Source: a bacterium
Lineage (GTDB): Bacteria > UBA10199 > 2-02-FULL-50-16 > JAJFLM01
Assembly: GCA_965216315.1 (NCBI GenBank)
Contig: CBDCFN010000016.1
Coordinates: 2,277,060 to 2,341,059 of the forward strand
DNA: 64,000 nt
Direction of reading: 5' to 3'
Shown: positions 2,871 through 44,427 of the stretch, in pieces
Layout of the letters: each line of letters opens with the position of its first letter
Numbering within the stretch: position 1 is the stretch's first letter
Notes under the pieces: generated by a model
What the model was told of the DNA's origin: nothing
Seen by the model: the letters and a program-made list of their open reading frames with translations, nothing else
Databases searched by the model: none
Translations under genes and position numbers: made by a program

Positions 2871-3695
2871 TTAGCGCAGCTGTTCGTGCAGATCTTCCGG
2901 ATCTTCGATCGGCTGCTGCGCGCCACCGATCTCATTCAATGATTTGATGACCTTAATAACGCTGTCTCTTTTGATCATCATTTTATCATCACCCTGTTCT
3001 TCTTCCTGCTCCGTAATACCGTAAGTTCCGGTGAACGGATTAGTCACCTCTTCGGCGCCTTGATTCTCCTCGGTGCCGCCAAAGCCTTCTGCAGGACCGG
3101 CCTGTTCCGTCTCGTCTTCACCTTCGCCCTCAGGATAATAGGGACCGCCGGTCCCTTCACTGGACCCGCCCGCCCGGGCGGCATAACTATCGCCTTGCTG
3201 GTAGAAGGAGATCTTGCCAATATCGTGGGTCACTCCGCGGCCTTCGAAACGGACATGAGGCGTATCATCATCGCCAAAGCCAACTCGAACCCGGGTGCCG
3301 TCAGGCATTTCAATATCAAACATATACTTGTCGCCAGACCGCAATCCAGGGATCGTAAAATCACAACTCGGCGTTACAGACGCACTTGTCTCTAAATGAG
3401 TGTGCACGTTCGTGGCAATAACCTTAACGCCCGCGCAGGCGTTCGGTAAATTCGGATCAAAACCGGGAATCTCCTGCATACGAGGAACGTTACCGGTCAC
3501 CGAAACGATGCCGGGGTTTTCGGCCTGCCCGGGATCTTGATCAGTCACCGAGGGACCGTTCCTGGGGTTACCCGCTTCGGTACCGCCTCGAAGTCCGGGA
3601 TTTCCTAAACCGCCACCACTACCCCCAGTATTGCAAGCAGTGACCGTTATCGCCACGACAGCCAAGGTTAAAACTAAATTAAATGCTTTCTTCAT
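2871..3695 (-). CDS. lipoprotein with GTEAGNP motif, coupled to upstream TIGR02147-like gene
   Basis: ORF 2871-3734; internal Met (rc ATG 3693-3695) gives lipoprotein signal MKKAFNLVLTLAVVAITVTAC; motifs GLGNPG and GGTEAGNP; 25 bp after stop of 3721-4569. Confidence 0.65.
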   Translation of the reverse strand: MKKAFNLVLTLAVVAITVTACNTGGSGGGLGNPGLRGGTEAGNPRNGPSVTDQDPGQAENPGIVSVTGNVPRMQEIPGFDPNLPNACAGVKVIATNVHTHLETSASVTPSCDFTIPGLRSGDKYMFDIEMPDGTRVRVGFGDDDTPHVRFEGRGVTHDIGKISFYQQGDSYAARAGGSSEGTGGPYYPEGEGEDETEQAGPAEGFGGTEENQGAEEVTNPFTGTYGITEQEEEQGDDKMMIKRDSVIKVIKSLNEIGGAQQPIEDPEDLHEQLR

Positions 3696-3720: not shown

Positions 3721-4569
3721 TTACGCTCTTTCATGTTTTGTCACCGGCAGCATCTGGATACTGAGCAAGACAACATCATCTGGATTGTCATCGTCAGCAA
3801 CCAACTGGAGGATTTCGCGTCGAAACTCCTGAATGCGTTTTTTGATCTGCGGGACTCTTTCTTTAATAATTCCTAAAGTCAGAGCACTGACATCCCGTTC
3901 TTTTTGTTCCACCTCGGGAAGCTGCCCTTTTAATAAATCAAACAAACTCTGGTGATAATTTAAAAGCACGAGGGAATCGGCTTCGGCACCGCTCGTTACA
4001 AGCGGTGTCGCCTGTTTCCACTTATTGGTCACCGCATCACGCTCAATAAAATGAAGTCGCGCCAACAATTCGACGGACTTTTTTACTTGCGCGGGAGACA
4101 CTTCCGGCTGCAATCTTTTAGCCAACCACTCGATTGAACCGTCAAAATCCTTAGAAATGATCAACTCGCGCACAACCGGATGATACCAGGTTGAAAAATA
4201 CTCGTAACGATCCTGCGCAAGTGGCTCTAACTGACTGTAGCGTTGAGAACGAATCAACTTCTTATAGTAAGCGTTTTTTTCCGCGTGCGTTTTCGCCTGA
4301 TTAAAGAAGACGAGATTACGAAAGTGCTCGCGCTCCGGACGCTCCAGTTTGATTCCTTTAATGAATTTCTTGAGGCTTTCCTCAGTCAGGTTACGTTCGC
4401 CATCCATGACGAGTTTAAAAATATTGGAGGATTTAAAGCCGGCTTGCCGGGAAAAGACCCGATATGAAAACCCGTACCGCTCTTTGGCCGATTCATACCA
4501 ATCGCGCAAGAAGGCCCGGTAATCCATATAATCGAATACTGAGACGTTATTGTTGCCGTTGTTACCCAT
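3721..4569 (-). CDS. XRE-type HTH protein, TIGR02147/DUF4423-like paralog 1
   Basis: 282 aa; conserved N-terminal block DYRAFLRDWYESAKERYGFSYRVFSRQAGFKSSNIFKLVMDGERNLT (HTH_XRE-like, GxRNLS end); paralogous to 7373-8233, 10214-11062, 18151-18723, 43573-44427. Confidence 0.75.
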   Translation of the reverse strand: MGNNGNNNVSVFDYMDYRAFLRDWYESAKERYGFSYRVFSRQAGFKSSNIFKLVMDGERNLTEESLKKFIKGIKLERPEREHFRNLVFFNQAKTHAEKNAYYKKLIRSQRYSQLEPLAQDRYEYFSTWYHPVVRELIISKDFDGSIEWLAKRLQPEVSPAQVKKSVELLARLHFIERDAVTNKWKQATPLVTSGAEADSLVLLNYHQSLFDLLKGQLPEVEQKERDVSALTLGIIKERVPQIKKRIQEFRREILQLVADDDNPDDVVLLSIQMLPVTKHERA

Positions 4570-6188: not shown

Positions 6189-7376
6189 CTAGGGTTGCGC
6201 CGTAAACGAAGTCGTTGCGGCCTTGGTCTTACCGCCCGTCCCGCAGTCGATTTCATCGACCTTGACCTCGTATTCGGTCCCGGCGGCAAAGGGGTCAACG
6301 CCGTGCTCGCACGCGATCTCATCCGCCCCCAGCTGATGGTTGGTGCAATCGACGTCGATCGCGAGTCCTTTGGGCTGAATAATCAGCGCGCTGGGAAAAT
6401 CGATCAGGCCAAGATGATATTTGCAGCCCAAGCGAACAATCACCTGTTCCGAGAGGCCTACGCCCGTCTGACCGTTGAAGGGATAAATTCTCAAGACCGG
6501 AACCATCCCCCCCAAATCTTCCTCACGACAAGGTGAGCCGGGATCATTGTCATCGATAAAACCATTGAGGTCACAATCCCGCTCCATTTGATCAAGTACG
6601 CCGTCGTTATCATCGTCCGTGTCGATCGCATCCGAGTCCCCATCCTCGTCGCGGTCCGTATAGATCTCCGGATTGTGTTCCGGAATCGCGTCAAGACCCT
6701 CGATCTGCACCCGACCTAAGTCAACGGGTTTCTCGGCCGGGAGCCCGACGTAAAACTCATTTTGGCGGATAAAGGCGCGCTGCTTACTGAGATGTTCCAT
6801 CTTCACGACCAGGCGCGCGACGAGGTCACCGGTCTTTTTTCGGAACTCCAGCATATAAGCGCGCTTGGTCGGCACAGCGAGCTTAAAAGAGCAATCCGAT
6901 TCAATTCTCGTAGTGAGCTCTTGTCGTGCAGAGTTGATCGCGGTCACGGTCGCGGCCGGACAGACCTTGACTACCGCAATTTTAGTCGCCTGCTCGGCCC
7001 ATTCCGTCCGGATGTTTACCAGACTCATCTGCATGAGCGGCCTGATATCCTTATACGGCAATTCGCGCACCGGGCTCTCGATCAGCTGCCGTTCCTCTTC
7101 CACGGGCTGCAGCTGACCGATGATCAGGCGTAGCGGAGCCGGATCCTGATCGTAAGGTGTTCCCGGCCGTGGCCCTGGTCCCGGATCAGTCGGCGTCGCT
7201 TCCGGATTCCCGAAATCCGTTCCCCCGAACTCTGGGTTCCCGAAATCCGTTCCGCTGATCGTTTGCTCGGTATCGACAATGTCCGGTGGTGCGGTATCCG
7301 CTCCCTGCGGCTGGACGCACGCGGCAATAAAAAAGACGAGCGCAATAGTACTGAGCAACCGGCTCCAGCAGGTCAT
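6189..7376 (-). CDS. lipoprotein with tandem GTDFGNPE motifs and thrombospondin-type-3-like Asp-rich calcium-binding repeats
   Basis: 395 aa; lipobox FIAAC; GTDFGNPEFGGTDFGNPE; DRDEDGDSDAIDTDDDNDGVLD and DCDLNGFIDDND; start overlaps stop of 7373-8233 by 4 bp; paralogous to 11507-12652. Confidence 0.7.
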   Translation of the reverse strand: MTCWSRLLSTIALVFFIAACVQPQGADTAPPDIVDTEQTISGTDFGNPEFGGTDFGNPEATPTDPGPGPRPGTPYDQDPAPLRLIIGQLQPVEEERQLIESPVRELPYKDIRPLMQMSLVNIRTEWAEQATKIAVVKVCPAATVTAINSARQELTTRIESDCSFKLAVPTKRAYMLEFRKKTGDLVARLVVKMEHLSKQRAFIRQNEFYVGLPAEKPVDLGRVQIEGLDAIPEHNPEIYTDRDEDGDSDAIDTDDDNDGVLDQMERDCDLNGFIDDNDPGSPCREEDLGGMVPVLRIYPFNGQTGVGLSEQVIVRLGCKYHLGLIDFPSALIIQPKGLAIDVDCTNHQLGADEIACEHGVDPFAAGTEYEVKVDEIDCGTGGKTKAATTSFTAQP

Positions 7377-8233
7377 GATCCACCTGCCTCGTCCGTCGGC
7401 TCTTCGACCATCGGGAATAAATAGATATTCAACTGCAAGACCTCCTCCGTCTCCGTATCATCGGCGACCAGCTTGAGGATGTCCTGTCGAAATTTTTCGA
7501 TTTTCTTCTTTATCTGGTGCAGGCGGGGCTTGGTTACTCCCAAGGTCAACGCCCCCATATAGCGCCTCGGTGCCGGAACGGCCCCAAGCAGGTGGGGGAG
7601 AAGCTTCATCATAGTCTTATGATAATTGAAAAGCTCAACGGATTCAATAGCGGTCCCGGGGGCGAGCACGGAAGAGCTCTGTTCCCAGCGTCCTGACGGG
7701 CTGCGATGGATCAATTCGAGCTTTTCCAAGAGCTCGAGCGAGGCTTCGACCTGCTCCAATTTGATCCGTTTTCCGAGCCGCGTCATCAACCATTCCGGGG
7801 TTCCATCATAGTCCTTGGCCGTGATGAGCTCGCGAATGACCGCATGGTACCAAGCCGAACAATATTCATGCTGATGGGCTCTAATCGGTTGTCTTTGTTG
7901 GTATTTTTTCGAACGCAGCAACAAGTTGTAGTAACGATCCTCTTCTTCATGGGTCTTGGCCTGGTTATACGCGACCAGATTGCTAAAAAAATCGGCGTCC
8001 TGGGCCGCCAGCTTCAAGGCCTTAACCGTCTTCGGCAAGGTATCCGCAGTTAAGTTCCGTTTTCCCTGAATGACCAACATGATGTAGTTGGAGGACTTGA
8101 ACCCGGCGCGTTCCGCAAATCTTCGATAGGACATGGAGGCCCGGGTCTTTTTCTTCGCCTCAAACCAGTCGCGCAAATAGGTACGATAATCGTTGTAATC
8201 GTAGAGATTTATGTCCTCTGCCGGCTCCGACAC
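7373..8233 (-). CDS. XRE-type HTH protein, TIGR02147/DUF4423-like paralog 2
   Basis: 286 aa; DYRTYLRDWFEAKKKTRASMSYRRFAERAGFKSSNYIMLVIQGKRNLT; shared central CSAWYHAVIRELI block. Confidence 0.75.
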   Translation of the reverse strand: MSEPAEDINLYDYNDYRTYLRDWFEAKKKTRASMSYRRFAERAGFKSSNYIMLVIQGKRNLTADTLPKTVKALKLAAQDADFFSNLVAYNQAKTHEEEDRYYNLLLRSKKYQQRQPIRAHQHEYCSAWYHAVIRELITAKDYDGTPEWLMTRLGKRIKLEQVEASLELLEKLELIHRSPSGRWEQSSSVLAPGTAIESVELFNYHKTMMKLLPHLLGAVPAPRRYMGALTLGVTKPRLHQIKKKIEKFRQDILKLVADDTETEEVLQLNIYLFPMVEEPTDEAGGS

Positions 8234-10213: not shown

Positions 10214-11062
10214 TTAAGCCTTGGGGCTCGTTAACGGAAACATGTGAATATTGACCTGAACGACCTCTTCCGGGGTTTCATCTGCGGAGACGAATTTGAG
10301 GATGTCCTGACGAAATTTTTGGACTTTTTTCTTGAGTTGCTCCAGCCTTTCTTTACGCACCCCGAGGGTCAATGCACTGATATCGCGTCGTTCTCCCGGT
10401 ACGGTATCAAGAACCTCCTTGGTCAACTCGAGCATATTATAATGATATGCAAATAATTCGATCGAGCGAACATCCGCCCCCGTCGAAACTAAACTATGGC
10501 TCTGTTTCCACCGACCTTTTTTATTGCGCTTGGCGAAGCCCAAGGTTTCTAATAATTCGAGAGAATGCGTCACATCGGCAACAGATACTTTCGGAAAAAT
10601 CCGTTCCGCAATCCATTCAGCAGTCCCGTCATATTCTTTTGCCGTAATGAGTTCGCGAATGACGGCATGGTACCAACGAGAGCAATATTCATATTGGTGC
10701 GTGCGTATCGGTTCTAACTGGTTATACTTTCTCGACCGCAGCATGCGTTGATAATAACGCTCTTTGTCCCGCTGATGTTCCTCCTGCGTATAATGAACCA
10801 GGTTTTCAAAAAATTCCGTCTCCTGCTTGTTCAGCTTGAGCGCCTTGGCCACTTTAGGAATGCTTTCTTGGCTCAAATTTCGCTTGCCCTGCAACACCAT
10901 CATAATGAAATTCCAGGACTTGAGGCCGGCACGCTCCGAGAACTTTCGATACGACATGCCCGCCCGGGTCTGTTTAGCAGCTTTGTACCAATCGTTTAGA
11001 AAATCACGATAATCTAGATAACTAAACGGGCTGACCTGATTGGCAATGCGTGACTGTGACAT
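10214..11062 (-). CDS. XRE-type HTH protein, TIGR02147/DUF4423-like paralog 3
   Basis: 282 aa; DYRDFLNDWYKAAKQTRAGMSYRKFSERAGLKSWNFIMMVLQGKRNLS; closest in sequence to paralog 5. Confidence 0.75.
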   Translation of the reverse strand: MSQSRIANQVSPFSYLDYRDFLNDWYKAAKQTRAGMSYRKFSERAGLKSWNFIMMVLQGKRNLSQESIPKVAKALKLNKQETEFFENLVHYTQEEHQRDKERYYQRMLRSRKYNQLEPIRTHQYEYCSRWYHAVIRELITAKEYDGTAEWIAERIFPKVSVADVTHSLELLETLGFAKRNKKGRWKQSHSLVSTGADVRSIELFAYHYNMLELTKEVLDTVPGERRDISALTLGVRKERLEQLKKKVQKFRQDILKFVSADETPEEVVQVNIHMFPLTSPKA

Positions 11063-25671: not shown

Positions 25672-26067
25672 TTGTTGGTTGCGTTGTGTTTGACCTTTAC
25701 CGCATGTCCCAAGCGGCCAACAACGCGTCCTCCCCGACCTGAGGTCGAACATCGCCGCCCCGAGGTCATTCGCCCCAACGGACAAGACTCGCCGGAACAA
25801 AAGGCCGCCGATCAACTGATCGTCGCGGGGATTGCCGCGCTCAAAGACGATGACGCGGAAAAAGCTGCAACTCATTTCGAGCAGGCCGTTCGCATCGCTT
25901 CCTCTTACGGTCCCGCCTACTATTGGCTGGCACGTGCCAAGTATGACCTCGACCAACTCACGCGCGCCTGGGATTTGCTCGACCGCGCGGAATTATTGAT
26001 CGGCCATGAGAGCCGCTGGCTCGAGCGCATCGACCAGCTCCGCGCCGCAATTTCCGACGCACGGTAG
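25672..26067 (+). CDS. putative small lipoprotein with TPR-like helical region
   Basis: AAGGAGGGG SD at 25650-25658; probable TTG start 25672 giving LLVALCLTFTAC lipobox; the upstream part of ORF 25519-26067 overlaps the PBP 3' end and is probably not translated. Confidence 0.4.
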   Translation: MLVALCLTFTACPKRPTTRPPRPEVEHRRPEVIRPNGQDSPEQKAADQLIVAGIAALKDDDAEKAATHFEQAVRIASSYGPAYYWLARAKYDLDQLTRAWDLLDRAELLIGHESRWLERIDQLRAAISDAR

Positions 26068-26098
26068 CCCCTTTCCCCGCGCCCCAATAGCGAGTATA

Positions 26099-26608
26099 AT
26101 GAAGCCATTCGACATGGCGACACGGAAGCAGGCAGCAGCGGACCCGAAGAAAAAGCCGGCCAAAAAGCGCGTCAAAAAAAAGCACGTCGTCGACTCAGTC
26201 AGATTCTCTAAACAATTAAAGTGGTTGGAGCCTTATCTGCGCCGGGCCAAGGACAAGATGCCCAGCCTGGAGCTGCCCCGCTACGTCCGTCCGTTCAAAC
26301 CTTCAAAAAACAAGATCTTGAGGACGCTGGGCAATGCCTTCTTTGAAACCAAGACGATTTCACTCGCGACCCACGATCAGCTGCTCCAAAAGCAACCGGA
26401 CAATACGTATCTGGTCTATCGCATCGTCAAACTGCATCGAAAACGCATCTTGGAAACCTTTGCGCACGAACTCGCCCACTTCCGCTATCCGGATCACAAC
26501 TACGAACAGGAAGAGTATACCAAGTCGATTTTTAAGGCCTTCGAGATGAAAGAGACCTGCCCCACCTGCAAGGGCACGGGTAAGGTGCATGCCCTCTGTG
26601 AAAGCTAA
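26099..26608 (+). CDS. putative zinc metallopeptidase-like protein (HExxH motif plus C-terminal CxxC zinc-ribbon-like element; SprT/YgjP-like)
   Basis: start taken at MKPFDMATRK; lysine-rich basic N-region; HELAH motif; CPTCKGTG near C-terminus. Confidence 0.45.
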   Translation: MKPFDMATRKQAAADPKKKPAKKRVKKKHVVDSVRFSKQLKWLEPYLRRAKDKMPSLELPRYVRPFKPSKNKILRTLGNAFFETKTISLATHDQLLQKQPDNTYLVYRIVKLHRKRILETFAHELAHFRYPDHNYEQEEYTKSIFKAFEMKETCPTCKGTGKVHALCES

Positions 26609-26688
26609 ACCGACCTCACAGGGATGAGTAGCGGTTCAATGAATTGAACCGCTACCAACCCTGGAATGAGGAGGTCTCACCCTAGCTC

Positions 26689-27369
26689 TTAGTGAACCGG
26701 AGACTGCGTGAGGTGTTCACGGATCTGTGCAAGCGCATCCGGGTTATCACGGAAGTACGCCTGGGCCAACGACTGGGCATCCCGGCTACCGCCGACGTAA
26801 ATATCCCGCGTCGCAATGGGCGCCACCGGTACGGCTGGTTCATCCGGCGGATTTCCCGTCACGACGACGGGGGTCCGAACGGGCCCGCCTGCATTGGCAA
26901 GGGGCATGGCTCCGGCGGGTCGGCGGTTAGCAAAGTTTGCCGAAAAGGTCAGGGTCTGGCCCTGGTAACGAACGGTTGCCACATTGGAGTCGCTTAGATT
27001 CGGTACCGTACCCGGCTGACCGACTCCGCCGCGAGCCATCGTTCCCTGCGAGCGCGCGATGATCGCATCGACAGGACTAAACAGGTTGGCGGGTTGCCGC
27101 GTCGTGCCGCTATCCGGCGCTTGAGTGGCGCGTGCCACTATCGGATTAGCAGGCGGGGGCGTCGGTTCGGGCAAACTCGCCAACAGATCCTCAGCTGGGT
27201 CCGCAGGGGCTGTTTGGCCGTGAGCTCGATCGTAAGTTGCAAGCGCTTCATCTACCGACTGCGTAATAGGATCTGCCGATGCTGTCGGGCTGGCTTGGCC
27301 GTGAGCTCGATCGTAAGATTGAAGGGCCGCGTCAACGACGGCCCCGATATCGATTGTATTTCCACCCAT
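26689..27369 (-). CDS. low-complexity Ala/Pro/Thr-rich protein of unknown function, paralog A (MGGNTI N-terminus)
   Basis: 226 aa; strong SD AAGGAG 8 nt upstream of ATG; internal repeats DAALQSYDRAHGQ and DEALATYDRAHGQ; no signal peptide; paralog of 28539-29087. Confidence 0.6.
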   Translation of the reverse strand: MGGNTIDIGAVVDAALQSYDRAHGQASPTASADPITQSVDEALATYDRAHGQTAPADPAEDLLASLPEPTPPPANPIVARATQAPDSGTTRQPANLFSPVDAIIARSQGTMARGGVGQPGTVPNLSDSNVATVRYQGQTLTFSANFANRRPAGAMPLANAGGPVRTPVVVTGNPPDEPAVPVAPIATRDIYVGGSRDAQSLAQAYFRDNPDALAQIREHLTQSPVH

Positions 27370-27476: not shown

Positions 27477-28574
27477 ATGCCTGGATTCCAAAATCTCACG
27501 ACCGTGGCCCGACGTCTGCGCGTCCATCTGCAGCAGCATCACGGGCCGAATGACCCCGCGCTTGATCGCGGGATTCCTCTGCGCCGTTGGGCTGCCCCTT
27601 CTTCTTCCGGTCTCAGTTCCCAAGCCCCACAGCTTGTCCCGGGTCAGGCCGATACTCTGGTCAGCGTCCCGGAAATCTTTCAAGAAAGTCTGCGTCGTCT
27701 AGAACAAATTCGTTTTGGCTCGACTTCCTTTGCCAGGGAGGTGGCTTCAACCAACCCGACCGCCACTGACTTCTATAATGACTACCGCCGCGACGCGGCT
27801 TACTTTCCCCCCTGGCTCATCGATGATGGCAACCCCATCAACTTGGCGGATCATGCCTTGCGGGCCCGTATCGATTCCGTCGTTCAGACAGCTCAGCGGG
27901 AAGCACAACGCAGGGGCCACCGACGGGGATCGGTCCCCTACAATGACCTGGTTTTGACGCGGCTGTTGCAATCGCTCCGCCAGGCTCAAAGTGCCGGCGG
28001 TTTTGGCCTGAGCTACGTCTTCAGTGCCGGCAACCGCCATCGGCGCCGTAATGCCATCGAGGCCTTCGCCGCCCATCAAGGTGACTGCAATGCCTTCTCG
28101 TTTCTCTTCTACGCCTTGGCACGACGTGCGGGACTCAATCCCCGCTTCATCAGTATTCCGGGGGAGCGCCAAAGCTACACGGGACCGTTTCGGGCGATCT
28201 ATCACGTCGGCGTCGCCGTCGAAGTTCGTCCCGGCGCCTTACGGCCCTGTGATCCGAGTCGCGGGGTCCGTGTCGATGAAGGGCGTTATCAATGGTATCC
28301 GCTGACCAACCTCGAAATGCTGGCCAGTTTCCTGCGGGATGTCGGCCTCTACAATGTAAGTCGACCCGCAGAACAAGAGCAGATCTTGCTCCAGGCCTAT
28401 CGACTGGCTCCGAACAGCTTCGACATCGCTCACGACGTCAGCTGGTTTTATCGGAACATCCGGCACAGCCCCCGAAGGGCTGCGCCCTACGTGCGTAGGG
28501 CGCAGCAGATTAATCCTTCGATGCAGCCGATCTGGGAATCAGTCCAGCGTCAGCGGGCCGGGCGTCCGAAGTAA
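27477..28574 (+). CDS. transglutaminase-like cysteine peptidase superfamily protein
   Basis: Cys motif GDCNAFSFLFYALARRAGLNPRFISIP, His motif YHVGVAVEV and Asp CDPS in canonical order and spacing; start uncertain (track TTG 27381 is 12 bp from the divergent gene, ATG 27477 preferred). Confidence 0.6.
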   Translation: MPGFQNLTTVARRLRVHLQQHHGPNDPALDRGIPLRRWAAPSSSGLSSQAPQLVPGQADTLVSVPEIFQESLRRLEQIRFGSTSFAREVASTNPTATDFYNDYRRDAAYFPPWLIDDGNPINLADHALRARIDSVVQTAQREAQRRGHRRGSVPYNDLVLTRLLQSLRQAQSAGGFGLSYVFSAGNRHRRRNAIEAFAAHQGDCNAFSFLFYALARRAGLNPRFISIPGERQSYTGPFRAIYHVGVAVEVRPGALRPCDPSRGVRVDEGRYQWYPLTNLEMLASFLRDVGLYNVSRPAEQEQILLQAYRLAPNSFDIAHDVSWFYRNIRHSPRRAAPYVRRAQQINPSMQPIWESVQRQRAGRPK

Positions 28575-29087
28575 CGCCGCACGGTCATTGGGACGGGCCC
28601 AAAGAGTCTGACCGCCGTGGCTGCGAACCGCGACAAAACCTTCGCTGGGCGCGCTGGCGCCAGCAGACGTCACGATGACCGGATGACCTTGGATGGTGCC
28701 GGTGCGAACACTCGGCGTTCCGCTCCCACCACGGGCCATTGGCGTATCCGAGGTTACAGGAGCGTCAATAGGACGCTCGGTTACAGGTCTCGGCTGACTA
28801 AAACGAGCGGCACTGCGTGCCACTGCGCCAGCAGTAGGAGCACTACCGCTCGTCGATCCATTGTGGTTGGCATCATAAGAAGCGAGTGCACTATTCACCT
28901 GCGGTTCAACAGCGTTGTTATCATAGGAGTCTAACGCAGCATCGACGATGGCGACCGTTTGGCGCGCCTCAGGTGTGGTTGCGGGAGCATCAGACAGCGG
29001 CACGGAATCGAGTAATTCCGTATTCGGTTCAGGCGCGGCCTGTTGCATGAGAGTTTCAAGACTTGGTCTAATAGTATTATCCCCCAT
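28539..29087 (-). CDS. low-complexity Ala/Pro/Ser/Thr-rich protein of unknown function, paralog B (MGDNTI N-terminus)
   Basis: GAGGAGG SD 8 nt upstream of ATG at 29085-29087; shares MG-x-NTI start, VDAALxSYD, ALASYD and MARGG-x-G-x-P segments with 26689-27369; 3' end overlaps the convergent 27477-28574 by 36 bp. Confidence 0.55.
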   Translation of the reverse strand: MGDNTIRPSLETLMQQAAPEPNTELLDSVPLSDAPATTPEARQTVAIVDAALDSYDNNAVEPQVNSALASYDANHNGSTSGSAPTAGAVARSAARFSQPRPVTERPIDAPVTSDTPMARGGSGTPSVRTGTIQGHPVIVTSAGASAPSEGFVAVRSHGGQTLWARPNDRAALLRTPGPLTLD

Positions 29088-29238
29088 TGTATTTACCTCC
29101 TCAAGTAAAAGGGTGAATTGTTTGAGCACTACTAGAGCAAAGAGTGTGCCAGCAGAGGCATTTAGGAATAAAAGTTATAACACTATGAAAGTATTATGAG
29201 TATCGTACGTGAGGTGGGAGGTCGCCAGGACCTAAAAC

Positions 29239-29275
29239 GTGAACAACGTGAACATATATTGTTTACGTTGTTCAC
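29239..29275. promoter_or_regulatory. large inverted repeat GTGAACAACGTGAACA-tatat-TGTTTACGTTGTTCAC in divergent promoter region
   Basis: 16 bp arms matching 15/16 with 5 nt AT spacer; the left arm carries a tandem CGTGAACA direct repeat. Confidence 0.5.
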
Positions 29276-29333: not shown

Positions 29334-29837
29334 ATGGCGACCAAGATCTTCATCGACGGCTACAATCTCCTCTGGGCCTCCGACACCCATCGCCCCGAGG
29401 CGATTCGCAACTTCGAGCACTCACGCGAAGAGTTGATCCAACGCCTCGCCGGCAGTCCGCGGCTCGCGCGCCATCAAGTCACAATTGTTTTTGACGCGCA
29501 CAAAACGGACGCCTACGACCTGAGTTCAGAAACCATCGATGGGATTGAGGTCCAGTTTACCAGGCAGGGCCAATCCGCCGACAGCGTGCTCAAAAAGCTG
29601 GCGCGTCAACATGGCAGTGCGGCCGTCATCATTAGTTCGGATCGAGAAGTCGCGCGTTATGCGGAAAAAAGGGGTTGCGGCGTATTAGGCTCTCATGAAT
29701 TTGACCTCCTCTTGGATAGTCCACCGGCCAGTGAGGATGACGCCTTCGAGGACGCCGACGAGATCAGTTATAGCAAAAAAGGACCCGCGCGCCGTGACCC
29801 CAAAGCACGGCGTCGCGCCCTCGCGCGGCTGCGCTAG
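29334..29837 (+). CDS. NYN-domain (YacP-like) predicted RNA-binding nuclease
   Basis: N-terminus KIFIDGYNLLWA matches YacP/NYN family starts; 167 aa; basic C-terminal tail. Confidence 0.65.
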   Translation: MATKIFIDGYNLLWASDTHRPEAIRNFEHSREELIQRLAGSPRLARHQVTIVFDAHKTDAYDLSSETIDGIEVQFTRQGQSADSVLKKLARQHGSAAVIISSDREVARYAEKRGCGVLGSHEFDLLLDSPPASEDDAFEDADEISYSKKGPARRDPKARRRALARLR

Positions 29838-29851
29838 GCCTATTCCCTCAC

Positions 29852-30190
29852 TTAATGAACCTGCTGGGCAACGGGAATCGCTAATTGACGCCGCCCGATC
29901 GCCAAGGCCGTGACGAGGCCGCCCTCAAAGTAGGCCCCGATCTGCGCCTCCAAACGTTGTTTGATGAAGCGAAAGGGACCGGGCTCACAACTGAGCGGTT
30001 CCGCGTAAATATCCGCGCGAACATTGGTCATCCGGCCCTCGCCGGTCACTGTATAAGTAAATCGAACCAGCCCATTAAATGAGTAAGGGACTCGAGAGAC
30101 GATTCTCTGTACCCCGCGTACCAGCTCCGCTTGGGTCCACTCCGGTTCGGCAGACTCTATCCTCAGTGTGGAATCGATATGGTGTGACAT
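29852..30190 (-). CDS. hypothetical protein
   Basis: 112 aa; strong SD AAGGAGGG 5 nt upstream of ATG. Confidence 0.5.
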   Translation of the reverse strand: MSHHIDSTLRIESAEPEWTQAELVRGVQRIVSRVPYSFNGLVRFTYTVTGEGRMTNVRADIYAEPLSCEPGPFRFIKQRLEAQIGAYFEGGLVTALAIGRRQLAIPVAQQVH

Positions 30191-30295
30191 GCTTACCCTC
30201 CTTAATGCCCACTAACGTAGCAAGTACCATGCCAAAAAAATCGCGTTCATTTTTTGGACCCAGTTGAAATCATTCAGTAAAGTTATCAACAGATT

Positions 30296-30327
30296 TTCTC
30301 ATTTTGATAACGTTATCAAAATGAGAA
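30296..30327. promoter_or_regulatory. perfect 32 bp palindrome TTCTCATTTTGATAAC|GTTATCAAAATGAGAA
   Basis: lies 106 bp upstream of 29852-30190 start and about 120 bp downstream of tRNA-Pro; no T-run follows on either strand, so operator-like rather than terminator-like. Confidence 0.5.
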
Positions 30328-30443
30328 TGTGGAAACGGGTCATCGCAAATATCCTTTTATTTTATCGATAGTTCGCAGCGATATCTGGAGTGAGCTAGGC
30401 GCAGGAGTGACCTAGGGTGCCGAAATTGTGAGCGAAGCAATTG

Positions 30444-30517
30444 TCGGGGAGACAGGATTTGAACCTGCGACCCCTGCGTCCCGAACGCAGTGCTCTACCA
30501 GGCTGAGCTACTCCCCG
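30444..30517 (-). tRNA. tRNA-Pro (anticodon CGG)
   Basis: cloverleaf readable by eye: acceptor CGGGGAG/CTCCCCG, D-arm GCTC..GAGC, anticodon stem CTGCG/CGCAG with loop TTCGGGA, T-arm GGTTCAAATCC; CCA not encoded. Confidence 0.9.
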
Positions 30518-30725
30518 TAATAATGGGGGTGTGTGCTTCGCCAAGCTAGCTTGGAACACACCCTTCTTACTATCGCGCCGTTTGCCTCGTGCCCTCCGCG
30601 GCACGAGTTTACCGGCTTGATCCCCCAAACCCCCGCTCCTCGATAAGCAAAGCTTTCTCGGAACGACGGCTCGACCGAAGCGAATGATGTCCTAAATTTC
30701 TGCGGAAAAAGCAAAGGAATATCCT

Positions 30726-31700
30726 TTAGGACCCTGACATCACGACACCGCGAGGCGGGGTAAAGGTCAAGTGCCCGCGTCCCGCCTGGGTAAAGGCCAT
30801 CGAGCGCAAGATTTCATGAGGGGTCGAGGTTGCGTCATCCACGGTCGCCAAGAGAACGTAGCCACAACCGGCGTGATACGCCGACCCCTTTTTATAAGGG
30901 ACGGGATGGTATTCGGTGCCCTCAATGACGTACGGATCCCCTCCCTCGCCGGCTTGGGGAATGCCTGCCTGACCCACGGGGGCTATCATGACATTGTCGA
31001 AGGTCCGCGTATAGGTCACACCCTCCGCCGTGCGTCCCGTCACTCCCAGCTGTCCTGCCACCGGGTTAAAAGGGCCCTGGAGAGGAAGACGAATCGAATC
31101 ACTGGAAAGATGGGACGTCCCGCCAAAACGAATGTCGCTGGCCAGATAAACCTGAGCCCCGTCGCTACCTTCCACCGTCTTACCGGCGATCGAGACGAGG
31201 AGCCCCTCGAGCTCCGTCGATTGACTCAAGGCCGTCTGAATATCACGGACCAGTGCCTGCTCCTGGCTGTCACTAAGATCCAATCCCGAGGCGAAGACCT
31301 GCACGCGGTCCAGAGACGCCATGGTCAGCCCCTCGGTATTCGCAACCGTCGCATCGAGATAAATCATCAAGGATCCGGTATCGAGACGGGTGTAGCGATC
31401 GCCCAAGGCTCCGGTCAGGGTCTCTCCCACGATTCGATTGACCTCCGGATTGGAGAGGCGATGGCCGGGGTCCGACATGGGCGGCGTCGACGCTGAAGAG
31501 GCCGGGAGGGTCCGTGCCATCACGGATGTACCGCCGTTGGCACCTGAAGACCCCGCCATCGCTTGAAACGAACGGCTTACCTCGGCCTCCGTCATAGTTG
31601 GCTCGGCCGCTACGGCGGTATCACTGGATACAAATTGTGCTGTATTGATATCGGCCATGGTGCGAACCATGGCGCTTCCTTGAATAATTGTTTCAGACAT
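30726..31700 (-). CDS. hypothetical protein
   Basis: start at MSETIIQ with GGAGG SD; 5' UTR and upstream operator nearly identical to those of 42867-43409; no recognised domain. Confidence 0.5.
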   Translation of the reverse strand: MSETIIQGSAMVRTMADINTAQFVSSDTAVAAEPTMTEAEVSRSFQAMAGSSGANGGTSVMARTLPASSASTPPMSDPGHRLSNPEVNRIVGETLTGALGDRYTRLDTGSLMIYLDATVANTEGLTMASLDRVQVFASGLDLSDSQEQALVRDIQTALSQSTELEGLLVSIAGKTVEGSDGAQVYLASDIRFGGTSHLSSDSIRLPLQGPFNPVAGQLGVTGRTAEGVTYTRTFDNVMIAPVGQAGIPQAGEGGDPYVIEGTEYHPVPYKKGSAYHAGCGYVLLATVDDATSTPHEILRSMAFTQAGRGHLTFTPPRGVVMSGS

Positions 31701-31769
31701 TACACACCTCCATGCCTTATTTATTTTCGTCACAATACTCAGGGCAGTTGTGAATGGCGCCGAGATTCA

Positions 31770-31786
31770 GTGTACTCTCAGTACAC
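31770..31786. promoter_or_regulatory. palindromic operator-like site GTGTACT-ctc-AGTACAC
   Basis: 70 bp upstream of 30726-31700 start; the extended 19 bp match CGTGTACTCT-N-AGTACACG is shared with 43478-43496. Confidence 0.5.
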
Positions 31787-31950
31787 GATATTATATGTTA
31801 TAACTATTTGTTTTTATTTATTATTCTATCTATTCTATTTTTTATGTGATTATATATGAAGGAGTTAAAAGTACACGAGGCGAGAACGCAGCAACTTAGA
31901 ATTAATGCCGTCGATAAGACCTCGACTCAAGTGAGGGAGGCTTGTGTGGT

Positions 31951-32853
31951 GTGAGTGGAAACTTCTGTAAACCCTTAAAAGATCAAGATCCGACCGCTCA
32001 TGCGCTCTGTAACCAACTGCGTCATGCCGGCGTCACGAGGGACACACTCGACCAAGGTTCGACTCGCCCTGACTACCAGAACTTCGGCCGTCACCAACTC
32101 GAGGTCACCGACACGTCCGGTTTCTCAATGGCGCACAATGGCGTCCTTGAAATCGCAGAAATTTATGACGCGGCCCTAGCCGCTGCGAGCCTGGCCTGGC
32201 AGCAACCCAGCCGGTACCACGTCGACCCTCGGTCGCAACTAGCCATCCCTTGGCTCCCATCGACCGGCAGTGGTGACACCTCAGTGGATCGCCAACTAGA
32301 AGCCTTGATCCAAAATCCAGCCGCGGCCCTGCCCACCCATGAACCTCCGGGTAGCCCGGCCGCCCATCGTCAGCTGGCCCAACTCCTTTATACAATCTTG
32401 TTACCGGCACTGAACCCAGGGACAGACCTTGACGCCTACCTCTATGCTTCCTACTGCCGCAAACTCGGCATTGTCGCCCAACCGATAGAGTTGACCCTGT
32501 CCGATCGCGTACTGATCGGACTCCAGCTCGATCCCCAGTGGCCCAACCACCTGACATTTGTCGACTTTACGAGAGGGCCGCGCGGTTTTGACGTGACCCT
32601 CTTTGCCGGCGATTGGGTCGCCATCTCCGAGCGAGAGCTGCTCGCCTATCATTATCTCCAGCAAGCGGCCCAACCCCAGGGACTCCAGCGGGCCCTCATG
32701 ATCGCCCCGCAGAACTACCGCGTCATTGCCGCCGAGGCCCGCTTCTTAATGGAAAACGGTTCGCGTGATCAGGCCTGCCAGCGGCTCCGCGAGAGCCTCC
32801 GCCTCAACGCCGTCTTCGCCGGCGCCAGTCAGATGTACGCCCATGACTGCTAA
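31951..32853 (+). CDS. hypothetical protein, possible Cys-His-Asp hydrolase-like fold
   Basis: ORF 31942-32853; GAGGGAGG SD at 31933-31940 favours the GTG at 31951; ordered motifs ASYCRKLGI, NHLTFVDF, GDWV noted, but assignment is weak. Confidence 0.45.
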   Translation: MSGNFCKPLKDQDPTAHALCNQLRHAGVTRDTLDQGSTRPDYQNFGRHQLEVTDTSGFSMAHNGVLEIAEIYDAALAAASLAWQQPSRYHVDPRSQLAIPWLPSTGSGDTSVDRQLEALIQNPAAALPTHEPPGSPAAHRQLAQLLYTILLPALNPGTDLDAYLYASYCRKLGIVAQPIELTLSDRVLIGLQLDPQWPNHLTFVDFTRGPRGFDVTLFAGDWVAISERELLAYHYLQQAAQPQGLQRALMIAPQNYRVIAAEARFLMENGSRDQACQRLRESLRLNAVFAGASQMYAHDC

Positions 32854-32900
32854 CACACGCGCACCGTGACAAAGTTGCAGGGCTCTGTTAGGCCCAAGGC

Positions 32901-42866: not shown

Positions 42867-43409
42867 TTATTTTGCGTCAGCCACGACTCCAGTATCCAAA
42901 TTAAGGTAGTGACGGTGTCTTCCCGTCGCATCTGTATAGACAAGCTTAACTTCATGGTCGTTACGCCCTGCCGTAATACGGACATTCCGCTTAATGTAAT
43001 TGAAGCCATTTAGGTCGCGATCAAATTTTCCAATAGTTGAACCAATCAATCGATACTGACCATCCGACATCAACGCAGACGTTTCTTCCCAGCCAGAACC
43101 GTCACCCCAATACCGTGTATTATCATCTCTACGGGTTAGGGATACGAAATGACGGTCCAAAGTTTTTTGGGCTCTTTTGCTGGTCTTGTAGCGTGTGTCA
43201 TGATCGAGTCGATTTTTACATAGATCATCCAGTGCCCTCCGAGGATCGATTGAGCGCTCGACTCCATCGATTGTTTGGCAAAACGCATCCCCTTCATCGA
43301 CAACCCCATTCTCATTGAGATCACGAACTCTCATGCCAGCGGGATTATTAGAATTGTACTCGTCGACAGATACCTGTTTAAATAACTTCGGATTCTTTAT
43401 TTCCGCCAT
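42867..43409 (-). CDS. hypothetical protein
   Basis: start at MAEIKNPKLF with GGAGG SD; 5' UTR and operator nearly identical to those of 30726-31700; terminator downstream. Confidence 0.5.
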   Translation of the reverse strand: MAEIKNPKLFKQVSVDEYNSNNPAGMRVRDLNENGVVDEGDAFCQTIDGVERSIDPRRALDDLCKNRLDHDTRYKTSKRAQKTLDRHFVSLTRRDDNTRYWGDGSGWEETSALMSDGQYRLIGSTIGKFDRDLNGFNYIKRNVRITAGRNDHEVKLVYTDATGRHRHYLNLDTGVVADAK

Positions 43410-43478
43410 CACACACCTCCATGCTTTTCAAATTTTCGTCAGTATTGACACGAGAGTTGCTACAAGAGAGGTATTTCC

Positions 43479-43495
43479 GTGTACTCTAAGTACAC
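43479..43495. promoter_or_regulatory. palindromic operator-like site GTGTACT-cta-AGTACAC
   Basis: 70 bp upstream of 42867-43409 and 78 bp upstream of paralog 5. Confidence 0.5.
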
Positions 43496-43572: not shown

Positions 43573-44427
43573 ATGATAGTACACGTGACCCCAGTCAAGC
43601 TCTTCGAATACCTCGATTACCGCGAATACCTCAAAGCTTGGTTTGAGGCAGCCAAACAGACACGGGCGGGGATGTCGTACCGGCTCTTTTCCAAGCGGGC
43701 CGGGCTCAAATCGACTAACTTCATCATGCTCGTCATGCAGGGCAAACGGAACTTGAGTGACAAAGCGGCCAAAATGGTCGCGAAAGGGCTCAAGCTGTCC
43801 AAGGAAGAGTCGGAGTTCTTCCGCTATCTCGTCCTCTTTAACCAGGCCGAGGCCCATAACGATAAGGCCCTGTATTATGAGCAGATGCTGCAATTTCGAC
43901 AGTACCGCAAGCACCGGCCGATTAGCCAGGAAGAGTATGCATACTGCTCTCAATGGTATCATGCGGCCATTCGCGAGCTGATCCTTGATCCTGATTTTGA
44001 TGGCAAGCCCACCTGGATCGCGGAACGGCTTGGCAATCGAATTAGCCGCGAGGAGGCTGCAGAATCGCTGAAGTTACTGCAAAAACTGAACTTTGTGCAG
44101 CGCACCCCATCAGGTCGCTGGCAGCAACAGGATGTGACGCTGACGGCGGGATCTCGGGTTGTATCTCTCGAGTTATTCAATTATCATTTAAGTATGATGG
44201 CGCTGTCCCCCCAGTTACTTGAAAGCCTGCCCGGGCAGCGTCGCGATATGAGCGCGGTCACGATGGGTATCGCAGCAGGACGTTTGCCTGAGCTCAAAAA
44301 GAAACTCCAGAAATTCCGTAAGAGTCTCCTCAAATTTTCCGCTGAAGCGGCCGACCCCGAGGAAGTGGTGCAGGTCAATCTCTACATGTTCCCCTTAACC
44401 GTCCCGAAAGGGTGCAAAGACTCATGA
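43573..44427 (+). CDS. XRE-type HTH protein, TIGR02147/DUF4423-like paralog 5
   Basis: 284 aa; YLDYREYLKAWFEAAKQTRAGMSYRLFSKRAGLKSTNFIMLVMQGKRNLS. Confidence 0.75.
   Translation: MIVHVTPVKLFEYLDYREYLKAWFEAAKQTRAGMSYRLFSKRAGLKSTNFIMLVMQGKRNLSDKAAKMVAKGLKLSKEESEFFRYLVLFNQAEAHNDKALYYEQMLQFRQYRKHRPISQEEYAYCSQWYHAAIRELILDPDFDGKPTWIAERLGNRISREEAAESLKLLQKLNFVQRTPSGRWQQQDVTLTAGSRVVSLELFNYHLSMMALSPQLLESLPGQRRDMSAVTMGIAAGRLPELKKKLQKFRKSLLKFSAEAADPEEVVQVNLYMFPLTVPKGCKDS

Follow-up and report, generated by a model that had tools for sequence, protein, structure and literature searches.

The locus considered here lies in a stretch of 64,000 nucleotides of bacterial DNA, referred to as the window, and its elements are all read on the minus strand. 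A tRNA-Pro(CGG) gene is followed there by a perfect palindrome, a second conserved block, a promoter element, a Shine-Dalgarno sequence and a small gene, ORF112.

30443-30517, minus strand: tRNA-Pro(CGG) (Rfam span 30444-30517), in its ancestral place between yacP and priA.
30296-30327, minus strand: perfect 32-bp palindrome, documented by its sequence, by statistics, by conservation in loci L003 and L031 and by a dyad pair in locus L004.
30264-30292, minus strand: second conserved block CTGTTGATAACTTTACTGAATGATTTCAA (block 2), invariant at 21 of 29 positions, whereas only 4 of the 28 positions that follow are invariant.
30219-30234, minus strand: sigma-54-type promoter TGGCATGGTACTTGCT, recognised by consensus, three-genome conservation and PSSM.
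30196-30203, minus strand: strong Shine-Dalgarno sequence AAGGAGGG, with 5 nt between it and the ATG at 30190.
29852-30190, minus strand: the presumed regulated gene of 112 aa (ORF112), whose product belongs to a tiny family with homologs P0138 in L003 and P0137 in L031.

The palindrome, TTCTCATTTTGATAAC|GTTATCAAAATGAGAA at 30296-30327, is a perfect 16+16 inverted repeat with zero spacer. Its start lies 115 nt from the 3' end of tRNA-Pro(CGG) and its other end 105 nt from the ATG of ORF112; the first-pass annotation gave about 120 and 106 bp. The description given there of a perfect repeat with neither spacer nor T-run held, and a T-run is absent after the palindrome on either strand. No other zero-spacer palindrome in the window is long, the runner-up having an arm of 8 nt, and simulation of the window with a first-order Markov model, repeated 200 times, gave longest arms of 6-11 nt. 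From the local base composition about 2.5e-5 palindromes with 16-nt arms are expected per 64 kb, or about 1e-3 per 2.4 Mb. The palindrome is confirmed as real and beyond chance. Core scans showed no family of such palindromes elsewhere in viral or metagenome contigs: the 12 matches of the core 18-mer in viral contigs and the 13 matches of the core 20-mer in metagenome contigs lay in unrelated, mostly AT-rich DNA, and none of them had a palindrome arm longer than 13 nt. Among the three matches inspected in GC-rich contigs, one was coding and none adjoined an informative gene.

The comparison covers four genomes at the level of sequence. A YacP search of genome contigs gave only relatives of 30-34% identity and PriA homologs were used instead; L003 and L004 were fetched around these, and L031 was added later. 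The nearest PriA homologs of the source genome are 63%, 59% and 55% identical, and the genome by this measure represents a deep-branching lineage; the YacP of L031 is 79% identical to that of the window. The order yacP, tRNA-Pro(CGG), priA-def-fmt-rpe is common to L003, L004 and L031, with priA following the tRNA at 5-100 nt in all three. In L031 only 3 nt separate the tRNA from the yacP stop and 75 nt separate it from priA; the corresponding gaps in L004 are 61 nt and 5 nt. Compared with L031 and L004, the window carries an additional 605 bp on the 3' side of the tRNA, comprising ORF112 and the palindrome, and an additional 2.38 kb on its 5' side. In L003 and L031 the ORF112 homolog and its element are found on the far side of yacP as seen from the tRNA, with the homolog and yacP transcribed divergently; in L003 a DUF5122 gene, situated in the gap between yacP and the tRNA, also separates the element from tRNA-Pro.

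As judged from this arrangement, the 605-bp cassette of gene, promoter and putative enhancer appears to be a resident that was relocated locally across yacP, and not a foreign insertion. It possibly took along the yacP-proximal part of the old intergenic region, for which the alignment is weak. Just 3' of tRNA-Pro the window has a 13-nt direct repeat on the minus strand (30387-30416, CCTAGGTCACTCC tgcg CCTAGCTCACTCC), which is partly alignable with yacP-proximal intergenic DNA of L003. The tRNA-Pro gene is a neighbour only, with no functional link to the palindrome. On its other side, the 2.38-kb block at 30518-32900 contains ORF335 (335 aa, minus strand) and ORF303 (303 aa, plus strand), neither of which has a family match or a counterpart in the L003, L004 and L031 loci; homology to the DUF5122 gene of L003 was considered for both and rejected. 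The block appears from these comparisons to be a lineage-specific insertion. A check of synteny proposed in the first-pass annotation showed extra DNA beside the tRNA relative to related genomes, but this is made up of a locally relocated cassette and about 2.4 kb of lineage-specific ORFs.

What was conserved during these rearrangements is a defined series of elements. On the sense strand the window reads TTCTCATTTTGATAACGTTATCAAAATGAGAA-AAT-CTGTTGATAACTTTACTGAATGAT...TTGGCATGGTACTTGCT...AAGGAGGG..ATG, L003 reads TTCTCATTTTGAGAC-C-TTATCAAAATGATAA-AAA-CTGTGGATAACTTTATTGAGTGAT...TTGGCATAGTTCTTGCT...AAGGAGG..ATG and L031 reads TTATCATTTTGATAG-G-TTATCAATTTGAGAA-AAG-CTGTGGATAACTTTATCAAGTCAT...TTGGCACGGGAATTGCT...AAGGAGG..ATG. 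Invariant in these three genomes are 24 of 32 positions in the palindrome, 21 of 29 in block 2 and 12 of 17 in the promoter element, against 4 of 28 in the spacer that follows block 2. Other intergenic DNA of the three cassette genomes is fully diverged. Since the encoded proteins are only 31-38% identical and neutral DNA is saturated at this distance, the blocks are under selection. The copies in L003 and L031 are imperfect palindromes with conserved arms. Because the arms in the window hold, at each position where the three orthologous copies disagree, the majority base if there is one, the perfection of the window copy looks like that of an unmutated consensus site in which only the centre differs (CG, 2 nt instead of 1).

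The fourth genome defines the basic unit. L004 carries TTATCAGATTGAGAA-TT-TTATCATTTTGAGAG, and the unit is therefore a 15-bp dyad, TTMTCA-N3-TGAKAA, of which the palindrome in the window represents two adjoining copies (30296-30310 and 30313-30327) with CG between them. All eight dyads across the four genomes fit this pattern with at most one mismatch each, and no further match was found elsewhere in the window or in the L003 and L004 loci. Dyad spacing takes two forms, 15-1-15 (L003, L031) and 15-2-15 (window, L004). In the window, L003 and L031 the GG of the -24 element is 87 and 70-71 bp away from the dyad centres; for L004 the distances to the GG of the sigma-54 site are 102 and 85 bp. Relative to the predicted start site the centres are at about -94 and -111 in the window and at about -94 to -126 over the four genomes. 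To our knowledge the half-site TTMTCA-N3-TGAKAA matches no known activator site, and a literature search for it returned nothing relevant. A candidate for a second member of the regulon within the window was discarded: its half-site match at 43309 is weak and inside a coding region, and its TGACAC...TTGCT element at 43446 is devoid of the GG.

The promoter element has the conserved form TGGCAY-N5/6-TTGCT with GG-N10-GC spacing. In the window the GG of -24/-25 is at 30233-30232 and the GC of -12/-13 at 30221-30220, which places the predicted transcription start near 30208, about 12 nt past the GC. The consensus TGGCACG-N4-TTGCW is matched at 11 of 12 positions in the window, 10 of 12 in L003 and 12 of 12 in L031; TTGGCA and TTGCT are invariant in the three genomes and the 5-6 nt between them vary. 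The Shine-Dalgarno sequence and ATG follow the element at 25-35 nt on the right strand in all three, with AAGGAGG at the equivalent place in L003 and L031. A sigma-54 PSSM was built from 29 intergenic sigma-54-bound sites of Salmonella listed in PMC3844500. The orthologous site was the top match in L003 (20.5 bits) and in L031 (13.7 bits), and the window promoter ranked third of 128,000 window positions with 14.6 bits, a score just below that of the weakest Salmonella training site (16.0 bits). The second rank in the window was intragenic and had no GC, and the first, 29151-29134, scored 19.0 bits, which equals the median of the training sites. A scan of 29800-30800 for sigma-70-like promoters found none, nor did direct reading reveal a conserved -10 hexamer 16-18 nt past TTGGCA. 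An A/T hairpin at 30233-30258, CCAAAAAAT-N7-ATTTTTTGG, abuts the -24 element in the window and has no conserved equivalent in L003 or L031; once the cassette had been relocated, it may have acted as a weak block to transcription running on from tRNA-Pro.

ORF112 was at first sight an orphan, as a word-index protein search returned only the query itself. This appearance was an artefact of word-based protein searching: tblastn found a 103-aa gene in L003 with 38% identity over 85 aa (E 4e-13), and exhaustive phmmer found the 130-aa P0137 in L031. Other phmmer matches, mostly several stretches of large repeat proteins (323-4816 aa) that aligned to a beta-hairpin segment, were judged spurious. The predicted fold is alpha-beta-beta-alpha-beta and weakly resembles the C-terminal domains of TonB and TolA. 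Autoregulation by ORF112 is considered unlikely, since it has no predicted DNA-binding fold. In L004 the element, with dyads of the form TTATCA-N3-TGAGAA, stands before a gene of 245 aa, of which neither ORF112 nor the 182-aa ORF discussed below is a homolog. The sigma-54 match there, TGGCATGAATTGTGCA, is the best of that locus (20.1 bits), and the dyads are about 100 bp upstream of it (3099-3224). A dyad pair and promoter at a different gene suggest a small regulon whose membership may differ between genomes.

Block 2 is centred about 30 bp from the centre of the palindrome, on the promoter side. It contains a third dyad-like unit, TTGATAA-CT-TTAYYRA (TTGATAA-CT-TTACTGA in the window), and the pattern TKGATAANNTTAYYRA, with 0.00 matches expected, occurs in this block and in the palindrome core but nowhere else. 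Its plus strand agrees with the IHF consensus WATCAANNNNTTR at 12 of 13 positions in the window and at 11 of 13 in L003 and L031. The block also contains a DnaA box, TGTGGATAA, which is perfect in these two relatives and matches at 8 of 9 positions in the window. IHF sites are often found between enhancer and sigma-54 promoter, where they are common and not obligatory. From its sequence block 2 may be a third, weak activator site or a DNA-bending (IHF-like) site.

The association of dyad pair, block 2, -24/-12 element, ribosome binding site and gene is conserved as a cassette in three genomes. On this basis we consider it probable that the palindrome is the enhancer (UAS) of a sigma-54-dependent promoter driving the 112-aa gene. 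The first-pass annotation had offered, as one of two options, that the palindrome is an operator for the downstream gene. This was correct insofar as a conserved cis-regulatory element travels with the gene, but the position of the palindrome, some 100 bp upstream of a conserved -24/-12 promoter, argues for the enhancer of an activator rather than for the operator of a repressor. Sigma-54 promoters are otherwise silent and depend on an activator. According to the model that we favour, a dimeric helix-turn-helix activator of the bEBP class (NtrC-like AAA+) would bind each dyad, and its dimers would oligomerise on the dyad pair. By DNA looping, possibly aided by bending at the conserved block 30264-30292, the activator would contact the closed complex that sigma-54 holoenzyme forms at -24/-12, and its use of ATP would open the promoter for transcription from near 30208. 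The usual distance of enhancers upstream of sigma-54 promoters is 70-150 bp (PMC3844500). Among the 30 window ORFs scanned, in 64 kb of a genome of about 2.4 Mb, none encodes RpoN or a Sigma54_activat (PF00158) protein, and neither appears in the Pfam lists of the L003 and L004 loci. The element of L003, L031 and L004 is located also in a divergent intergenic region towards yacP and could in these relatives serve the yacP side too.

A parallel case for such an enhancer-promoter grammar is found 1 kb away, where the best PSSM match of the window is preceded by a palindrome of its own.

29239-29275, minus strand: a different palindrome, GTGAACA-AC-GTRAACA, a 5-nt gap and an inverted copy, giving four GTRAACA units.
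29136-29151, minus strand: second sigma-54-type promoter TGGCACACTCTTTGCT, the best PSSM match in the window (19.0 bits).

This palindrome (GTGAACAACGTRAACA, 5-nt gap, inverted copy) has its centre about 132 bp upstream of where transcription is predicted to start, and the promoter is followed by the Shine-Dalgarno sequence GAGGAGG and the ATG at 29087 of a low-complexity ORF of 182 aa (28539-29087, minus strand). The cassette sits 5' of yacP, which is the place of the ORF112 cassette in the relatives, and has no counterpart in the fetched loci.

The arrangement at ORF112 could also be the work of a conventional dimeric regulator, a repressor or class I activator of Fur-like, TetR-like or other type, for which the dyads would be the operator and sigma-54 would not be involved; in the relatives such a regulator might control a divergent promoter on the yacP side. 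The AT-rich dyads of GATAA-like hexamers resemble Fur-type boxes, and the element lies 35-130 bp upstream of yacP or of an ORF397-homolog/yacP pair in L003, L031 and L004. In the window, however, the element has moved away from yacP together with the -24/-12 promoter and ORF112, and over the genomes its distance to the sigma-54 element is fixed while that to the yacP-side start is variable. Simple occlusion would require a shorter distance than the 70-110 bp by which it lies upstream of the one promoter-like element that is conserved. Direct reading also shows spacings that misfit known boxes: the Fur 7-1-7 arrangement TGATAA-N3-TTATCA is not observed, the gap here being N1-N2, and neither the FNR pattern (TTGAT-N4-ATCAA) nor that of CRP is followed. 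The window core TGATAACGTTATCA fits by eye the consensus TGWNANCGNTNWCA of cre/LacI-GalR operators, but the central CG is peculiar to the window copy and is absent from L003 (GAGACCTTATC) and L031 (GATAGGTTATC), which have an odd, 1-nt centre. Readings of the core as a cre/LacI, FNR/CRP or Fur site were rejected on these grounds of spacing or conservation, and no regulator of cre/LacI-GalR or Fur type is encoded nearby. We regard a conventional operator as unlikely.

The resemblance of block 2 to a DnaA box opens two further readings. Combined with the sigma-54 promoter, the dyad pair and the DnaA-box-like block could form a DnaA/IHF module, either DARS/datA-like or providing an input of replication status, beside priA; in a milder version they could belong to a portable enhancer-promoter module that relocates and was recruited by the ORF112 family in three genomes and by the 245-aa gene of L004. 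Taken together, these versions have only a slim chance of being correct. The element could otherwise be an architectural DnaA-box/IHF cluster next to the replication-restart gene priA, resembling DARS or datA or belonging to a DnaA-regulated promoter. The perfect TGTGGATAA in the block beside the palindrome in L003 and L031, the similarity of the TTATCA half-sites to DnaA boxes (7 of 9 positions) and the IHF match on the plus strand of block 2 are in its favour. Yet the box in the window, TTATCAACA, is mismatched at a conserved position, conservation spans whole 15-bp dyads with TCATTTTGA arms and not 9-mers like TTATCCACA, the dyads of L004 are kept where the DnaA-like block is absent, and GC skew shows no origin here. 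This reading is very improbable.

The location beside a tRNA gene had led the first-pass annotation to its other option, a relic of a recombination site bounding a GC-rich block at 26.7-32.9 kb. Such a relic would be an att site or a lox/dif-like core (13-6-13) left by an element that had integrated at the 3' end of tRNA-Pro. As with tRNA-linked att sites, the palindrome adjoins a tRNA 3' end and extra DNA is present compared with relatives, namely the 605 bp between yacP and the tRNA 3' end that L031 and L004 do not have; the 32 bp can be interpreted as a pair of recombinase arms flanking a short spacer, and a 9-nt match to tRNA positions 50-58 occurs at 29856-29864, near the far junction. 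That match does not extend. The direct repeat of the tRNA-Pro 3' end that was to be looked for is not there: a 22-mer of that end, allowing up to three mismatches, had no other match in the window, and blastn-short of the tRNA gave at best 9-10 nt at E >= 3 with no extension. Pfam, NCBIfam and PHROGs revealed no integrase, recombinase or transposase domain in the ORFs at 26.0-35.0 kb, where the domain matches were YacP, PriA and a weak transglutaminase-like one, along with weak DnaJ_CXXCXGXG/WLM matches in ORF 26006-26608 and one marginal PHROG of unknown function in ORF226. The element of L003 and L031 is located away from the tRNA and attached to a homologous gene, and the palindrome is thereby conserved in the promoter region of relatives, an outcome that the first-pass annotation had itself counted against a relic. 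The inserted DNA is a resident cassette of composition that is not atypical; nor is the supposed GC-rich block distinct, given that GC is 0.53-0.54 at 29-32 kb and 0.59-0.61 at 32-37 kb, where the adjoining core genes priA, def and fmt are equally GC-rich. An att-like relic is thus hardly credible.

An equally poor prospect is an RNA hairpin acting as terminator or processing signal of tRNA-Pro, or a functionless product of quasi-palindrome correction: the palindrome is on the strand of the tRNA, 115 nt downstream, would fold with a dG of -15.1 kcal/mol and might have been made perfect by template switching, but the stem is AT-rich where an intrinsic terminator requires a GC-rich stem and a U-tract, a terminator scan of 29800-30800 gave 0 sites, and an Rfam scan found tRNAs only and nothing at the palindrome. 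In L003 and L031 the palindromes, imperfect but with conserved arms, are flanked by divergent genes, which require no terminator, and persistence of the element between genomes whose PriA proteins are 63% identical points to a role at the level of DNA. Between them, the loci of the relatives and the lack of an integrase, of a repeat of the tRNA and of a U-tract effectively refute both the att relic and the terminator.

Other repeats and repeated genes of the window were observed in passing. Perfect inverted repeats with 13-nt arms and 2-nt loops are present at 26628-26655 and 28479-28506, the former between the convergent ORFs 26006-26608 (plus strand) and 26689-27369 (minus strand), where it is a possible bidirectional terminator. 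A perfect palindromic motif of 17 bp, GTGTACTCTNAGTACAC, occurs twice (31770-31786 and 43479-43495; expected 0.02), once in the divergent intergenic region of ORF335 and ORF303 and once about 80 nt upstream of a DUF4423 gene at 43573-44427; by its sequence and placement it looks like an operator common to both sites, for another regulator. At least four paralogous genes of about 282 aa have a C-terminal DUF4423 (E 1e-35 to 1e-40). The one paper found to mention this domain deals with Bdellovibrio, which hints at a possible relationship of the organism to that genus.

3721-4569: DUF4423 paralog (Pfam domain).
7373-8233: DUF4423 paralog (Pfam domain).
10214-11062: DUF4423 paralog (Pfam domain).
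43573-44427: DUF4423 paralog (Pfam domain).

If the enhancer reading of the palindrome at 30296-30327 is correct, the locus offers a testable regulatory module in a deep-branching uncultured lineage, in which a conserved block stands between a double dyad that matches the consensus perfectly and a canonical -24/-12 promoter. The motif TTATCA-W3-TGAKAA could then serve to locate the remaining members of the regulon and, by co-occurrence, the activator. The locus also illustrates that a striking palindrome beside a tRNA gene need not mark an integration site.

Among known systems, the sites of LuxO type, TTGCA-N3-TGCAA, are found upstream of sigma-54 qrr promoters. They share with the dyads described here the short arms 3 nt apart and the position upstream of a sigma-54 promoter, a resemblance only, since the bases differ, the arrangement is 6-3-6 instead of 5-3-5 and the lineages are unrelated. 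The closer likeness is to NtrC and its enhancer at glnAp2 of E. coli and Salmonella, to PspF at pspA, DctD at dctA and ZraR at zraP, with which it shares two adjacent dyads upstream of a -24/-12 promoter. In glnAp2 the dyads are about 32 bp apart from centre to centre, whereas those of the window abut at 16-17 bp. The distance of the putative enhancer to the promoter falls within the approximately 70-150 bp given for such systems (PMC3844500). A conserved block also lies between the two, in a place where IHF sites are often found. By this analogy the architecture would work like that of NtrC and glnAp2, and the palindrome would be an ordinary instance of a sigma-54 enhancer.
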